A stretch of 64,000 bases of DNA from Octopus vulgaris. Its lineage: Eukaryota. Position 1 is the stretch's first letter, and each line of letters begins with the position of its first letter. Shown piece by piece: positions 39,469-48,785 of the stretch. The stretch is from the NCBI GenBank assembly GCA_951406725.2, contig OX597828.1:56296001-56360000 (forward strand), given 5' to 3'. The position numbers and the translations under genes were made by a program. Under the pieces are notes generated by a model. It was not told the origin of the DNA, searched no databases, and saw nothing but the letters and a program-made list of their open reading frames with translations.

Positions 39469-39509
<41 letters not shown>

Positions 39510-39748
39510 GTGTGAATGTGTGTGTGTATGTTTGTATGTCTGCGCTTGTCCCCCCAACATCACTTGACAACCGATGCTAGTGTGTTTACGTCCCCGCAAC
39601 TTAGCGGTTCGGCAAAAGAGATCGATAGAATAAGTACTAGGTTTTCAAAGGATACGTCCTGCGGTCTGTTTGCTCGACTAAAGGCGGTGCTCCAGCATGG
39701 CCACAGTCAAATGATTGAAACAAGTAAAAGAGTAAAAGAGTAAAGAGT
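39304..39748 (+). mobile_element. full-length tRNA-derived SINE with CORE-like block, internal microsatellite and (GTAAAAGA)n tail
   Basis: A-box-like TGGCCGTGTGGTAAG, B-box-like GGTTCAGTCAC and GGCACCTTGGACAAGTG. Partial copies lie at ~7530-7700 (-), 19750-19900, 50635-50755 and 61520-61725. Confidence 0.8.
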
Positions 39749-40137
39749 ATAAGTCCCTAATTTGCGTTTAAGTTTTTAATAGAAGTGTATCCAAAAGGTC
39801 TTCAATTTTTATGCCATACGGTTAAAATTAAAGACAAAATATTTTTTGAAAAAGGGTTTTTGGAATTTTTATTTCATAGCTCACCGTTTGAATGAAATAT
39901 AAATTTGGTTTCGCGCTCTGGGAAAAGACAATCCGCGTCTTATTGATATAAATACTCGAGGGGGCTTCCACAGACAATGGAAGCATACGCATGATTCCTA
40001 GATATTGTAAATAATATTTCATATCTTTTGAATTTGGAAATGTTCCCAACAATGTACATGTGACACGCAGAAACCTATGTTGCAATGCTTTAATAAAGTA
40101 AAAAAATCCGCATGCAAAAGTCTTTTTTCTCTATTAC

Positions 40138-40178
<41 letters not shown>

Positions 40179-40186
<8 letters not shown>

Positions 40187-41509
40187 GAAAGTTGGCTTGT
40201 GAAAGCACGTGGTTGAATATATAGAAAATAGTAAAAAGTGAAAAAACTACAGAAGGCTTAAATGTTAAAAAATATATATTTGCGTCAATATGTCTGAAGA
40301 ATATTAAATTTTTTTTTCTCATATAGTGACATAGTTTTGAAGAAAGACCGGTTTCGCATTTAGCTTTTCAAATTTCTTACGACGTTATGTTTATGTTGAA
40401 TAGAGTTATCGTTATGTTTATGTTCAAAAGAGTTCTAAATAAGGGGAGGTAATGAGTGATTTCTTCCGGTGTAAGGGAGATAATCGCTTAAAAATTTTTT
40501 CCTTTCCCTTGGTGTGAATTTCTCTGTATCAGTATGTTGGGATGGTTAAGTCTGGGCTTGTACTTTTCAATGAAGAATGTTTCCTTGTTTAGTCTAATTT
40601 GTGTTGATGATCCGATAGCACATTGGTAAAATGGAAAGATTAAAAATTGTGGTAGTAGTTGCTTTGCGCATTTCACAATGTGCTCACTAAAATGTATCAT
40701 TCTGTATTCTGGGAATGCAATCTGTTGTCGATGCCGTGTGCATCTACGTTTGAGTGATAGTCCCGTGGATCCCACGTAGTCTTGGTGGCAGCCCGAGCAT
40801 TTTATGACATAAATTATGTTTTCAGAGGCACAAGTAAAGTTAGATTTGATCTTGAATTTCTGTCCCTCTTTAAAGAGGAATTCTGATCCTTCTAGCAGGT
40901 TTGGACATGTTGCACAGTTCGATCTACCACATTTTTTTACTTTTGCATCCGTAATTTCAGAAGGGTGTTTTTGAGTTCTTGCAGTCTAAAGTTCCTGGTA
41001 TTTTGTTCTGACACTATTGTGCATATCCTTCTTGCAAGGTTGAAGGTGATGTTTATTTTAGTGTGTCTTGGGTGGCATGAATTAAAAAGAAGGTATTGTT
41101 TGGCGTCTGTGGCTTTGTAAAAAATGTCTGTTTCTATTTTAAGGTTAATTTTTTTAATTAGTATATCCAAGAACGGGAGCTCCTTTTGGTTGTATTCCAT
41201 TGTGAACTGTATATTTGGGTTTATGCTGTTCAATAGGTTTTTAAATTTTAGGAGTTTATCTGTGTTTTCATTCCAGATTATAAAACAATCGTCTAGTAAT
41301 TGTTTCCAATTCTCTTTTATGTATTGAGGAAGGGGGTTTCCAAAGATTGATAATGATTTCTGGTAAATGATTATTTCCATGTAGCCCATTGTTAAGTTCG
41401 CAATGACTGGTGCTGCCCTTGTACCCATAGCAATTCCGGATTTTTGACGGTAAAATGAATTGTCAAACATGAAGTGGTTATTGTGTAGGATGAATTCAAT
41501 TGATTTAGT
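40179..41509 (-). mobile_element. inverted 5-prime-truncated copy of the adjacent Penelope-like element
   Basis: Reverse complement of 44363-44910 joined to 45206-45943, continuing into 41969-~42012. Carries a 295-bp internal deletion. Confidence 0.95.
40340..40378 (-). ncRNA. variant minimal hammerhead (U3-A8) in the inverted copy
   Basis: Exact reverse complement of 41813-41851. Confidence 0.65.
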
Positions 41510-41812
41510 CCAAAAACCCTTTTTCAAAAAATATTTTGTTTTTAATTTTAATCTTTCCATTTTACCAAAGTGCTATCGTATCATCAATACAAATTAGACT
41601 AAACAAGGAAACATTCTTCATTGAAAAGTACAAGCCCAGACTTAACCATCCCAGCATACTGATACAGAGAAATTCACACCAAGGGAAAGGAAAAAATTTT
41701 TAAGCGATTATCTCCCTTACACCGGAAGAAATCACTCATTACCTCCCCTTATTTAGAACTCTTTTGAACATAAACATAACGATAACTCTATTCAACATAA
41801 ACATAACGTCGT

Positions 41813-41851
41813 AAGAAATTTGAAAAGCTAAATGCGAAACCGGTCTTTCTT
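41813..41851 (+). ncRNA. variant minimal hammerhead (U3-A8) in the pLTR
   Basis: AAGAAA T TTGAAAA GC TAAAT GC GAAA CCGG TC TTTCTT. Confidence 0.65.
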
Positions 41852-42035
41852 CAAAACTATCTCACTATAAGAGAAAAAAAAATTTAATATTCTTCAGACA
41901 TATTGACGCAAATATATATTTTTTAACATTTAAGCCTTTTGTAGTTTTTTCACTTTTTACTATTTTCTATATATTCAACCACGTGCTTTCCCAAACCAAC
42001 TTTCTTATCTATATATTAAACACGTGAGACCGAAA

Positions 42036-43391
42036 ATGCCACAGAATACCAACACCTCGGATAAAACTACATATGAGGACATACTCAAAGAATTGAAAAG
42101 TATTAATACACAGCTAATTACCCTGAACAACAAAATCGAGGAATCAAACCTACTCGCCCGGGAAAGTAAAAGCAATGAAGATACAACTCGCTACACTGAC
42201 CAGGTTAGTAAGGATTTGCAACTGTTATACACAACACTAAATTCAATTCTTATCAGCAAATCCGAAAATAATAAACACACACCAAATGAAACACAGCAGG
42301 ACATCATACGCACCCAAATTAACCCAGCAAAAAGAAAAATAGGAAACATTTGGAATACAAACCTGCACAACAGAAAACTCGCCTTCTGGAACATGATAAA
42401 AAATTCCAACAAAGCAGATATATACGAGGGATGGATGAACTCAACACCAATTATCCTCCCACGCAAATTCCAGATAAAATTAATTCCTAACGAGCCTGAC
42501 GGACAGAGAACTATTAGGGAAAAGTCAGCTCTGTTCAATTTAAGATCAGAAATAGAGCTTCTAAGACTAAGGGCCTCCACAAATGAGGAAAAATTTAAAA
42601 GCATAGACGAGGAGATGCACAATATAATACAGAAACATACCGAGGGACAACCCCTCGAAAATACATTAGATCATTGGAAGGATACCTGTGAAAAAGAAGA
42701 GAGACATTCTCTCCTGCGCTGGGAGAAAAACATGGATTTCTTCCAAAAATATAGTTCAACTTTCAAAAATGAATTGTGTACAAATAATCCCTTCCTTAAG
42801 AAAATTACAAAAAATAAAAAAGAAAAACCAAACAACCCACGAACAATCCCCAACTATCCTCCATACACTAAAAACAGAAATCACCCACAACCAACCTTTG
42901 CAAACCACGCAAGACCTAACAGGGAACTAACTGACAGACGATGCGTCTATGAAATAAATTACACCAAAAACAGAACACACCAACAACATCCTAATACCAG
43001 ACCCAACCACCATACAGCACAAAACGACACTAGAATAAGAAATACACCACACACAAGTCGCTACTACCCCATGAACCAAAATTACTGGTCCCCACTGAAC
43101 ACAAGACAAACGCAAAAAAACACTATGTCAAGCGACATCCCACATACAAGCAGTTCCAACCAAAAATATTTCACATACAGAAATTTTACACACACCACAA
43201 ACAAAAACAACCATAGATTCCCACACACACACAACGATCGGGGGCAACAATACCACCATTCCCCCGACCCAATATCACACAACCTCACAGACAACTCATA
43301 CAAACAAAATTACAACCAACATTTTTTAGCCAGGGACCAGAGAAAACAGGACACAGGCTGGAACCTAATAATAAGGAAAAACCGAAGATAA
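42036..43391 (+). CDS. PLE ORF1 / N-terminal region (coiled-coil-like start, N/H/T/Q-rich tail)
   Basis: ~451 uninterrupted codons from ATG 42036. Heptad-like ILKELKSINTQLITLNNKIEE. Confidence 0.75.
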   Translation: MPQNTNTSDKTTYEDILKELKSINTQLITLNNKIEESNLLARESKSNEDTTRYTDQVSKDLQLLYTTLNSILISKSENNKHTPNETQQDIIRTQINPAKRKIGNIWNTNLHNRKLAFWNMIKNSNKADIYEGWMNSTPIILPRKFQIKLIPNEPDGQRTIREKSALFNLRSEIELLRLRASTNEEKFKSIDEEMHNIIQKHTEGQPLENTLDHWKDTCEKEERHSLLRWEKNMDFFQKYSSTFKNELCTNNPFLKKITKNKKEKPNNPRTIPNYPPYTKNRNHPQPTFANHARPNRELTDRRCVYEINYTKNRTHQQHPNTRPNHHTAQNDTRIRNTPHTSRYYPMNQNYWSPLNTRQTQKNTMSSDIPHTSSSNQKYFTYRNFTHTTNKNNHRFPHTHNDRGQQYHHSPDPISHNLTDNSYKQNYNQHFLARDQRKQDTGWNLIIRKNRR

Positions 43392-45678
43392 TCAATCTTT
43401 CAACCAAACCTCTTTCTAACATAAAAATTGACATCTTCTCAAAAGGGCTCAAATTTACACCAACTCCACGCAGAGCCAACCTAAATGAAATCAAGGATAA
43501 TATAACAGAATTTTGCAGAAAATTAAGACTAGCAGAAGCATCAACCAGTTTCAATACTGAAGATGAATCACTAGTCAAGATCAAAAGTGAACACATCCCA
43601 TACAGAGGAAGAAATAAAGATCTTGACGAATTCTGTAACCACATTGAGAACTTCCCTACCATACTATACATAAACAGAAAGCTAACCCAAATTTTAACAC
43701 TACACAATGGAAAGAACTGATAGAACTCCAAAATGATGAAGATATAACCATTAAGGAAGCGGACAAGGGAAATGCAGTTGTAATAATGGATACATCATAC
43801 TACAGAAATCTTGTAATTTCCTTGCTTGATGACGACCTACATTATGAAAAAATTACCAACTACACCCCACAAAAAATAATGAAAACTCTATCTTCACTAA
43901 TTAAAACCCATGAAAAGGAACTAACAACCAAAGAGATTGACTTTCTAACAAATTTTAAATACAAACCTAGCCTTTTCTATGATCTGCCAAAAATTCATAA
44001 AAGTCAAATTATAAATGAAACCATTAAAAAACCACCAAAGACATACATACACACACCTAACCCGGGGGACCTGAAACTACGACCCATTGTATCTGGCCCA
44101 ACCTGTGAAACACACAGACTAAGTCTATTTATGGACATCCTCTTGAAACCCATCCTTAAACATATCGATAGCCATATCAGAGATGACTTAGATATGTTAA
44201 ACCACCTTCCAAAAATAAGCCAAGGAAGAAACAATCCTGGTTTCATTTGATGTAGTTAACTTATATACCAGTATACCTCATAATTATGGACTAGAGGCAA
44301 TACAGTTCTGGCTGGACCAATTTCCGGGAGCAATACCAAAAAGGATCAGTAAAGAATTCATTACTAAATCAATTGAATTCATCCTACACAATAACCACTT
44401 CATGTTTGACAATACATTTTACCGTCAAAAATCCGGAATTGCTATGGGTACAAGGGCAGCACCAGTCATTGCGAACCTAACAATGGGCTACATGGAAATA
44501 ATCATTTACCAGGAATCTTTATCAATCTTTGGAAACCCCCTTCCTCAATACATAAAAGAGAATTGGAAACGATTACTAGACGATTGTTTTATAATCTGGA
44601 ATGAAAACACAGATAAACTCCTAAAATTTAAAAACCTATTGAACAGCATAAACCCAAATATACAGTTCACAATGGAATACAACCAAAAGGGGCTCCCGTT
44701 CTTGGATATACTAATTAAAAAAATTAACCTTAAAATAGAAACAGACATTTTTTACAAAGCCACAGACGCCAAACAATACCTTCTTTTTAATTCATGCCAC
44801 CCAAGACACACTAAATCAAACATCCCCTTCAACCTTGCAAGAAGGATATGCACAATAGTGTCAGAACAAAATACCAGGAACTTTAGACTGCAAGAACTCA
44901 AAAACACCCTAATTGACAGACATTACCCAGCTCAACTCATAGAGGATGGGATCAGACGTGCAACAGAAATCAACATAGAAACTTTAAGAAACGTTCAACA
45001 CAACAACACACCTTCCCCAAAAATACTACCTTACATATCTACATACAACCCCAGAAACAAAGAAGCCTTCACCATCATCACCCAGAATTTACCAATACTT
45101 CATAAGGACCCCAAATTAAAGGAAATTCTAAACATACACCAAATCATTAAAAGCTACAAACAACATAAATCACTTAAAAAGATTCTCACAAAGGCAAAAT
45201 TGTCTTCTGAAATTACGGATGCAAAAGTAAAAAATGTGGTAGATCGAACTGTGCAACATGTCCAAACCTGCTAGAAGGATCAGAATTCCTCTTTAAAGAG
45301 GGACAGAAATTCAAGATCAAATCTAACTTTACTTGTGCCTCTGAAAACATAATTTATGTCATAAAATGCTCGGGCTGCCACCAAGACTACGTGGGATCCA
45401 CGGGACTATCACTCAGACGTAGATGCACACGGCATCGACAACAGATTGCATTCCCAGAATACAGAATGATACCTTTTAGTGAGCACATTGCGAAATGCGC
45501 AAAGCAACTACTACCACAATTTTTAATCTTTCCATTTTACCAATGTGCTATCGGATCATCAACACAAATTAGACTAAACAAGGAAACATTCTTCATTGAA
45601 AAGTACAAGCCCAGACTTAACCATCCCAACATACTGATACAGAGAAATTCACACCAAGGGAAAGGAAAAACATTTTAA
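43322..45678 (+). pseudogene. PLE reverse transcriptase plus GIY-YIG endonuclease, with frameshifts at ~43655, ~44220 and ~45230
   Basis: IINLS...KGLKFTPTP, IKEADKGNAVVIMD, LPKIHK, LRPIVS, FDVVNLYTSIP, GIAMGTRAAP, LLDD, PFLD, CGRSNCATC, NIIYVIKC..C...YVGST. Confidence 0.92.
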
Positions 45679-45787
45679 GCGATTATCTCCCTTACACCGG
45701 AAGAAATCACTCATTACCTCCCCTTATTTAGAACTCTTTTGAACATAAACATAACGATAACTCTATTCAACATAAACATAACGTCGT

Positions 45788-45826
45788 AAGAAATTTGAAA
45801 AGCTAAATGCGAAACCGGTCTTTCTT
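45788..45826 (+). ncRNA. variant minimal hammerhead (U3-A8) in the 3-prime UTR
   Basis: Identical to 41813-41851. Confidence 0.65.
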
Positions 45827-45940
45827 CACAATTATCTCACGATAAGAGAAAAAAAAAATTAATATTCTTCAGACATATTGACGCAAATATATATTTTTTA
45901 ACATTTAAGCCTTCTGTAGTTTTTACACTTTTTACTATTT

Positions 45941-45999
<59 letters not shown>

Positions 46000-48785
46000 A
46001 CGGTATTATTGAAATACCATCACGATTGACAAGCGAATTATCAGCCATACAGGTAAATTAATAAAATATGTACATACATACACAAGGGTACTATTTCTAT
46101 CTTTCGCAATATAGGTACTCATGTAGTACCCTTGCGTATATATGTACATATCTAATATTGCATGTATATTTTATATATATATATATATATGCATACATAT
46201 ATAAATCGATAGACACAGAGATTAACCTATTATATATCTAATTCATATAACGTTAGGTTATCAGCTGCTCTTATCAGGACAGCATCAACCCCGCTCCCAA
46301 TGATCATCGGCAAATAAAAACTGGAATCCTCAAAATTCCACAACATTTGGGATTCGAAATCTCTGACTTTCAAAAGTGTTCGTATATCGACCATCTGTAA
46401 GAATTTAGGACTGAATTAAAAGTAATCGCTAAAATAGTCTCCACTTGTCCTCACTATCACAATCTTCATCTCATCTTGCCAGGATTTAGAAAACATCTTT
46501 CTCTGCGGATCCAGTTTATCTGGAAACTAATATGTTAAATGTCCATATGTTCTTTGATACTATAGAATGATATGGATAGGGACACCCCATAATTCAACCT
46601 ATCATAGAATAACTAAGATGTCCAACACATCTTGGCAGCAACTTTTCCAGCACTTATAGAAGTTAGCACTCGTGTATGTATCTGTGTGTGCATGAGTGTG
46701 TGTTTGTGTGTGGTGGGGAGCGTTGATGTGTCGGTGATTGTGTGTTTGTGTGCATATATGGAGTTGTGCTATGGTAGTTAATGTGTATTTATGCAACTGT
46801 TTGGAAGTCAGTCTTCTGGATTTATTTGCAGTTGAAAGACCCAGTTTTATCATATGTCATATGACATGTTTTCATGTTAGATGTATGATGTGACTAACTA
46901 TCTGTTGAATATTTAACCACTTAATCACTTTGAACGTTATACGGATATAGAATTAGAAGACTTATTGAATCTGATGTTTAGAGTGAAGTTTAGCTAATGT
47001 AAACTTTGATATTTCAGAATTTAGGACTCTTTTACAAATGTATAAGTAATTTTACGCAAAATAAAAAGTCTACCTTTTAAAACTGTTGCTTTGTTACACC
47101 ACATTTATATTATAAAGCATGCTGAGTTCTATTCAATATTTGATGTGCCGAGCGAACTGAATGTGAGACTAAAATCAATTCTAGTTATCTATTAGAAATG
47201 TCTATCTTACGCTGGTTAATAGCAAAATTCTATTACCAAGATGACGCATTCGTAGTACTTTTCAGTTTATCACCGGGGAGTCGTCATGCTAATATAAAAA
47301 ACTTGTATTAGTTTTATTCCACTTTTTTACTCGATTAATGGTTGGTTACTGAACCGAATAACCAATCCATTATTTGATTACGTATTTGATTTATCTATCA
47401 ATAAGTTACATTTGTTAAAATAATTTCCTTGTCATTAGCGATATATTTAATGACGGCTAAATATCTAAACAAAGGAATAATATAGAGTTCAAATAGGTTC
47501 AATACGTGTGTTTAATATTAATATAAAGAATCTATCGAGATATAAAAATTCTATTTAGCGCTCAAATCCAATTCAACTGTTTCAGCTTTTTCTCAAGCTC
47601 ATTGTTTTCTTTACTCAAACTCTATCGTATAACATCTGTAGTAAATTATAGTTTCTTAGAAGACGAAAATGTATATTTTTTTTATTACCTTCCTATATTC
47701 CTTGTACTGCTTTTGAATCATCGTTCTATTTACTTTTGATACAAGTTTTTTGTAATCACTTAAAAAAACAAACAAACAAACATGTAATTAGTAATGAGGA
47801 CAGCAATGGATCGTAATCTATTTTCTTTTTTTTCCGTTAGAATTACTTTTGCATTTTAGAAACTAATTTTCAACGTCTTGGGCATGTCTTGCGCCGTGTT
47901 ATACGCGAGTATATTAATTTCACAATGTAGCTTCTGTAGAAAGATGCCACTTTTATTATTTAAAAGACATAAATATTCCTTTCGTTTTCAATCAAGGCAA
48001 CTATCCTTTATATCAAAATCCGTTTCGAGAAAATGAACCATCTATAATTCACCAAAAGATTAATTGTTACAAAAAAGTTAAATAACTTCAAAGGAGGATG
48101 AGATTCACGTCAGGGTTTGGCTCTCCTGTGCGACGAATCTACTAGTTATTTAAGACTTCTGTTGTCTGTGATCTCGACTGCGTATTAAACTAGACGTCGC
48201 ATTTGCTTTATTTTGTGCTTGTATGCTATGTGTTAAAAGATGCAGACGCACATGTGAGTATTGAATTATATCGATATCATATGACTATCAATGTTTTCGT
48301 GATATAAACACTTTAATCTCAGAAAAGCACACCCACCTAACAAACTAATAGTTTACCATCACGTTTCCATTAAAATAGATATGTTCAGCCAAGTTTCAGT
48401 GCATTATATTCACACATATAGAGTGCAAAGAAATGGTTTTCCCGTTAGACAGTTTAGCATTGCATATAAGATAAGATAATTATAATTTAACAACAGAGAA
48501 TAATGGTTTCTTCTTCCTTTCAATCCAGTGCTCTGAAAATTATGTTGTGCATAGCTGAAATTATCTATTCCGGATTTCTTTAGCTGGTCCACAATTGATA
48601 ATTGAGCATTGCACAGGGAATTGCTGAAGGCTATAGCATATTTTCAAAACAATTTAGACAGTTAATTTGATAATATATACATGAAGCTGAAATTGCAAGG
48701 TAGAATTTCTTCAAGCAATATACCATTTATCTGATGAACTATCGGGAATCCTCTGAGCCACACCAATTTTACATTACCATATATA

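Follow-up and report, generated by a model that had tools for sequence, protein, structure and literature searches.

The closest described relatives of the motif considered here are the minimal hammerheads of metazoan PLEs, such as those of the Cercyon elements of Schistosoma mansoni (Cervera and De la Pena 2014, PMC4209133), described as having type I topology, a place in both pseudo-LTRs (pLTRs), G10.1-C11.1, a palindromic 15.2-16.2 region, U3-A8 covariation and thousands of dispersed copies, all of which are shared by the motif in the window (the whole 64-kb stretch of Octopus vulgaris DNA analysed). The same source gives U3-A8 for about 1,300 motifs of S. mansoni Cercyon PLEs, and describes PLE minimal hammerheads as cutting poorly and only as multimers. 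Stem II is 7-8 bp long in the Schistosoma motifs but only 2 bp in the window, and in contrast to the PLE consensus CUGANGAH in the supplement of PMC4209133, the window motif has no extra base between 9 and 10.1, G10.1 following directly after A9. Two further differences from the Cercyon motifs are that stem III of the window motif keeps a 2-nt palindromic loop, and that position 1.1 is missing, leaving U2.1 unpaired.

One or more unpaired bases between stem I and position 3 are likewise present in the saltern hammerheads HHmeta and HHphage with their 2a/2b insertions (Perreault et al. 2011, PMC3088659), one of which also has U3 with G8 (core quoted in PMC7151607). As described in PMC3088659, these have two inserted bases and come from archaeal viruses and metagenomes, whereas the window motif belongs to an animal retrotransposon and has a single unpaired base, whose partner on the other strand was likely deleted. 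That report also contains natural active exceptions to direct closure of stem I, a 425-fold slowing of saltern hammerhead cleavage in 4 M LiCl by insertions next to C3, and U3-A8 found in nature, with in vitro activity cited.

Poseidon PAc of Anolis carolinensis (Frangieh et al. 2024, PMC11167929) shares with the window element a pLTR hammerhead, AT-rich targets and two 3' ends (tail) past the cut that mark internal RT starts. As reported there, the PAc hammerhead is C3-G8, needs its protein and is dispensable for insertion in vitro, RT starts internally, and the ORF begins within the ribozyme; the window element, in contrast, has an ORF starting 191 nt past the cut, two overlapping ORFs and a Zn-finger linker. 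The Neptune and Nematis EN+ PLEs, as presented by Craig et al. (2021, PMC8557442), share with it an RT followed by a C-terminal GIY-YIG, a CX2-5CxxC linker, a pLTR, an inverted 5' arm, a tail and microsatellite targets.

The host of the motif (Table 1) fits an EN+ PLE of the Neptune/Nematis type because the ORF2 motifs occur with a pLTR, an inverted arm, a tail and (TA)n flanks; the clade is assigned from domain and motif anatomy, which does not tell Neptune from Nematis. GxKF and DKG of the RT, the C-terminal GIY-YIG with two cysteines between GIY and YIG, and the CX2-5CxxC linker are all present. Another copy (L224) has an open frame of 850 aa, which shows 82-96% identity to the pieces of ORF2 in the window and contains GLKF, DKG, the C-x4-C-x2-C linker and the endonuclease motifs, also seen in the window pieces; Pfam matches to the window ORF2 (RVT_1, E 2e-4; GIY-YIG, E 1e-3) are both under the curated cut-off. 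Programmed -1 frameshifting between ORF1 and ORF2 may be possible in this EN+ PLE. The family and its A1.1-bearing form also occur in assembled contigs of other organism codes. A long, perfect-looking hairpin adjoining the insertion (46060-46155) matches many miRNA models far below their cut-offs and is probably a small inverted-repeat element. The U UUU UUA heptamer recurs in copies L224-L226, and a hairpin lies behind it (region 43322-43400).

Table 1. Features of the PLE insertion and its hammerhead motifs, in window coordinates
Feature	Position	Strand	Remarks
Second arm of the same insertion	40175..41509	-	Inverted, 5'-truncated, internally deleted; RT piece joined to endonuclease and 3' end, with tail
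Third identical motif	40340..40378	-	In inverted arm; on the opposite strand, hence absent from the same transcript
Pseudo-LTR (pLTR)	41546..42016	+	41546-41968 repeats 45521-45943 at 97%
Minimal type I hammerhead motif	41813..41851	+	In upstream pLTR; U3-A8 core, U2.1 unpaired (A1.1 absent); predicted cut after C41845
Optional tail of pLTR	41969-42016	+	Genomic copies usually have their 3' end at 41974 or at 42016
ORF1, 451 aa	42036..43391	+	Without Pfam match at E<=0.1
ORF2 (RT, C-x4-C-x2-C linker, GIY-YIG endonuclease)	43217..45678	+	Broken into four frames
Candidate -1 frameshift heptamer U UUU UUA	43322..43328	+	In ORF1/ORF2 overlap, ORF1 phase, with hairpin downstream (inferred)
Second identical motif	45788..45826	+	In 3' untranslated end, 110 nt past endonuclease stop; predicted cut after C45820
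(CT)n(AT)n microsatellite	45944..45998	.	At 3' end of element; similar run at about 40140-40174 beside inverted arm

Hammerhead positions are numbered in the customary way. Part of what an earlier note on this DNA had proposed holds: a search of the 64-kb window found the 39-nt motif at three places with 0 mismatches, and at none in 100 shuffles; it stands where a PLE hammerhead is expected, in both pLTR repeats of an element with RT and GIY-YIG; and the parse is as given there. The core is U3-U4-G5-A6-A7-A8-A9, canonical at every base except U3-A8. Stem II, of 2 bp, is closed by G10.1-C11.1, both invariant in the alignment of relatives, and is followed by GAAA; stem III is the palindrome ACCGGU with a GUC site, whose C17 precedes the tabulated cuts; and stem I has 6 bp plus one unpaired U, so that the 2.1-1.1 pair is missing and stem I is not closed directly on the core. 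The three copies lie in a single insertion, one each in its pLTR, its 3' end and its inverted arm, and 60 nt on the 5' side are also identical among them, the differences starting 3 nt beyond the motif; their identity is therefore no sign of selection. The two motifs on the same strand are 3,975 nt apart.

A single copy cannot form stem III (+3.7 kcal/mol with the stem in place), whereas ACCGGU pairs with itself at -8.3 kcal/mol; the palindrome thus suits a dimer, as had been supposed, and stem III would form only between two copies. The double-hammerhead fold did not emerge when two motifs were cofolded by unconstrained MFE, the 39-mer did not fold better than its shuffles (z 0.08; no signal above shuffles in 4 of 4 stretches), and the Rfam hammerhead models had no match at E<=10 in 39500-46500, as would be expected for minimal variants. 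By eye, a distal extension of stem I is possible, mutated in two of the three window copies.

The genome (2.8 Gb, 227 contigs) was searched with one hammerhead descriptor in which only positions 3 and 8 were altered, each version having its own reversed control. U3-A8 gave 7,847 matches (105 in the control), U3.G8 639 (84), C3-G8 509 (47) and C3.A8 218 (44). U3-A8, which had been called rare in nature, accounts for 85% of these matches (7,847 of 9,213) and is found again in several families that are unrelated and differ in their stems, 360-bp tandem arrays among them; it is neither rare nor new, and the swap alone is no news. The U3-A8 of the window lineage appears to have been inherited from older families. 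Uncorrelated variation at positions 3 and 8, which the earlier note had held to count against a functional ribozyme, is found in one respect, since two amplified sister subfamilies carry U3.G8; but overall the two positions covary (odds ratio 29 at copy level, the copies not being independent), though not strictly. U3.G8 as an intermediate from C3-G8 to U3-A8 was rejected for the window PLE family, in which U3.G8 nests inside U3-A8. Within the sources reached by a literature search, no paper was found on G8A/C3U with Penelope, or on these motifs in octopus.

Several other groups of motifs were observed in the same genome. Tandem arrays of ~360 bp with one type I hammerhead per unit (L068-L074, L083-L086, L232-L235) resemble non-LTR retrozymes, and C3-G8 and U3-A8 versions of the arrays have the same GAGG/CCUC stem II (L083 versus L250 and L255). 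A small family with the mismatched C3.A8 core has three units 360 bp apart (G000:C4:80857199-80857949 and other places), and a separate dispersed U3.G8 family has a 4-bp stem II, an ACUAGU stem III and a GUU site (L239, L241, L252).

The unpaired U, regarded in the earlier note as an extra base, is likely to be U2.1, its partner A1.1 having been deleted once in a young lineage, rather than an insertion. The A1.1-less form seen in the window has 678 matches, and the form in which an A after base 17 pairs with U2.1 has 995 (the search patterns differ by one 5' letter and have the same stem I). A1.1 is present in all 30 older relatives fetched, and stem I is closed directly by the 2.1-1.1 pair in 28 of 30 other motifs. 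A tree was built from about 700 columns on the 5' side of the motif for 57 rows, chosen from 127 candidates so that no motif type had more than 4. It has the shape of a ladder: the A1.1-bearing families branch off first, and a branch with support 100/99 leads to the A1.1-less forms, the window copy among them, except for one A1.1-less row (L188) that falls within the older rows. Inside the A1.1-less branch are a clade that has A1.1 again (100/100) and a U3.G8 clade (100/99), suggesting one later regain of A1.1 and one drift to U3.G8. With 6 rows left out, and for groups named only after inspection of the tree, the AU test rejects a single clade for the A1.1-bearing rows (p 0.0013) and for the A1.1-less rows (p 0.0003), but does not reject one for the A1.1-less rows plus the regain branch (p 0.48). 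An unpaired U2.1 beside the core would slow cleavage. The 1.1-less form may already appear in Lunse et al. 2017 or in a supplement of PMC4209133. Two more distant families seem, by eye, to pair best with one unpaired base at the same spot.

The core varies little among the matches listed. With positions 3-9 left free, the 100 matches listed of 1,945 comprise 89 with UUGAAAA, 9 with UUGAAGA and 2 single mutants; with positions 12-17 free, GAAACCGGU is kept in 89 of the 100 listed of 2,000, the other 11 being scattered. Loop 2, base 17 and the flanks vary between subfamilies. The second pair of stem II is changed from C-G to U-A in older relatives, and in unrelated families pairing is maintained in stem I, stem II and the stem III palindrome although all three have other sequences, so that the three helices are supported by compensatory change. 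A Fisher test of core against flank (1/17 versus 110/197 sites) was discarded, as core patterns had been used to retrieve most of the copies. In some older relatives (L290-L292, L299-L306) stem II is cut to a single G10.1-C11.1 pair. Conservation of this kind could also reflect a non-catalytic role, for example in binding the PLE protein or as a component of the internal promoter, with the hammerhead only in the ancestry of the sequence; loss of A1.1 and U3.G8 are tolerated while GAAACCGGU is unchanged, and PMC4209133 leaves other functions open. However, the fixed and free positions fit hammerhead chemistry (7, 17 and loop 2 being free), and the 3-8 pair and the stem pairs covary across unrelated families; a purely non-catalytic role is considered highly improbable.

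Impairment of the core does not stop these elements from spreading, as the amplified U3.G8 subfamilies and the small C3.A8 family show. Within the window PLE family lie 83 of the 100 U3.G8 matches listed of 207, and A1.1 is also missing in 23 of 24 U3.G8 copies examined. All four long, near-intact ORF2 copies fetched (744-850 aa) carry the A1.1-less form, which is thus compatible with recent transposition. The motif might accordingly be a dead or nearly dead relic, broken by the loss of A1.1 in an element that needs no hammerhead, its apparent conservation being due to short time and few master copies. The succession of A1.1 loss and A8-to-G8 change in two amplified subfamilies is in keeping with this, as is the fold that does not rise above shuffles; according to PMC11167929, insertion of the anole element in vitro is unaffected by hammerhead mutants and RNA-seq showed no ends at the cut, and Naiad PLEs are described as thriving without canonical hammerheads (PMC8557442). 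Against a relic stand the absence of change at any other core position at the subfamily level among the matches listed, the regain of A1.1 in an abundant young branch, and the 5' junctions of A1.1-less copies that pile up at the cut (below); a relic is rated as rather unlikely.

The ends of genomic copies bear on what cleavage may accomplish. Of 137 copies, 58 end near 41974, 63 near 42016, and 10 continue into ORF1; thus 121 retain the complete motif and have their 3' end 129 or 171 nt beyond the predicted cut, and linear RNA cut at both motifs cannot be their template without re-ligation, whereas uncut or circular RNA can template such ordinary copies. The two usual ends match the two internal RT starts of the anole element as reported in PMC11167929. 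Cleavage is likely not to set the ends of integrated copies, contrary to the proposal in the earlier note that it defines a unit-length RNA. For that proposal to fit the genomic ends, RNA efficiently cut at both motifs would have to be ligated to a circle and copied from an internal start. The same-strand motifs could pair via ACCGGU, a circle model has been proposed in PMC4209133, and a circle could also have given rise to the copies that have the whole motif; against this, a clean start at the cut is found in only 1 of 40 ORF1-bearing copies, intact motifs number about 2,000 but cut-site stubs only a few dozen, and subfamilies with an impaired core were amplified. Efficient cutting into unit-length RNA is therefore improbable.

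A second ORF1-bearing copy, L318, at first looked as if it began at the cut but turned out to skip across stem I. L401 and L408, at the same place as L318, skip the whole core and join both stem I strands, which is what formation of stem I in the template RNA would produce. Inversion junctions recur just 3' of the motif (L436, L437, L439, L451, L454), with A-rich microhomology to the far 3' end.

Junctions at the 5' ends of copies were counted in four 3-nt windows, each sampling two of the four letters. The cut window had 46 matches, all examined: 20 keep the motif upstream, and the other 26 rows represent 25 junction events, of which five were set aside by eye (three stem I skips or snap-backs, two ambiguous), leaving 20. 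Controls 10-12 and 4-6 nt upstream of the cut had 4 and 5 junctions, each among 7 matches; the control 5-7 nt downstream, which also takes in older families and had 5 chance matches in its own control, had 17 events among 20 matches. The cut window exceeds all controls together (20 versus 4, 5 and 17; p 0.005) but not the downstream window by itself (20 versus 17; p 0.37). When subfamilies were assigned by three-nearest-neighbour votes (197 of 203 right by leave-one-out), 8 of the 20 events were A1.1-less, 11 A1.1-bearing and 1 without assignment. A1.1-less junctions number 8 at the cut versus 2, 2 and 1-5 in the controls (p 0.006-0.04), and 7 of these 8 exclude C17 (p 0.003); for A1.1-bearing junctions the counts are 11 versus 2, 3 and 14 (p 0.11). 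Nineteen of the 20 cut-site copies stop at the usual 3' ends, as do most copies, and several are palindromes centred on the cut.

This excess, small and uneven, is a modest hint of cutting in vivo. Microhomology may bias it, the upstream controls being GC-richer and having less microhomology to (TA)n targets; the T-run at the cut can draw apparent junctions towards itself; and a polymerase that stalled at stem III would stop within one base of the cut. Within the sources covered by a literature search, no paper on a cut-site junction footprint was found.

On balance, the reading that seems somewhat probable is that the motif is a minimal type I PLE hammerhead with U3-A8 and one base of stem I missing, which likely cuts weakly, probably only as a dimer or with protein, and in a minority of RNAs. 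Loss of A1.1 in a young lineage would have left U2.1 unpaired beside the core and slowed cleavage, while the lineage kept multiplying. Reverse transcription would begin at an internal point of the RNA, 129 or 171 nt beyond the cut. From an RNA that is uncut or re-ligated, it would pass through the motif and give ordinary copies, whereas on RNA cut at the motif it would run off the new 5' end and give stubs of 129 or 171 nt and short palindromes that start at the cut. It is further possible, though this is put forward only tentatively, that the A1.1-less U3-A8 hammerhead, whose scissile phosphate lacks the usual first stem I pair after it, cleaves in the germ line, that the stubs are its fossil record, and that the lineage, as a natural series (A1.1 present, lost, regained; A8 to G8), tunes cleavage down and up, balancing uncut against cut templates.

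For the genome of O. vulgaris, these results mean that a search for CUGANGA misses most hammerhead motifs (509 C3-G8 versus 7,847 U3-A8 matches), as the earlier note had anticipated for the motif in the window. For PLEs, why their hammerheads cut, and whether they do so in vivo, is a standing question in the literature (PMC8557442, PMC11167929). The window PLE family offers matched natural variants in one genome, with hundreds of copies each and single changes adjacent to the core, and the rate of cleavage in vitro could be set against copy number and stub frequency across these variants.
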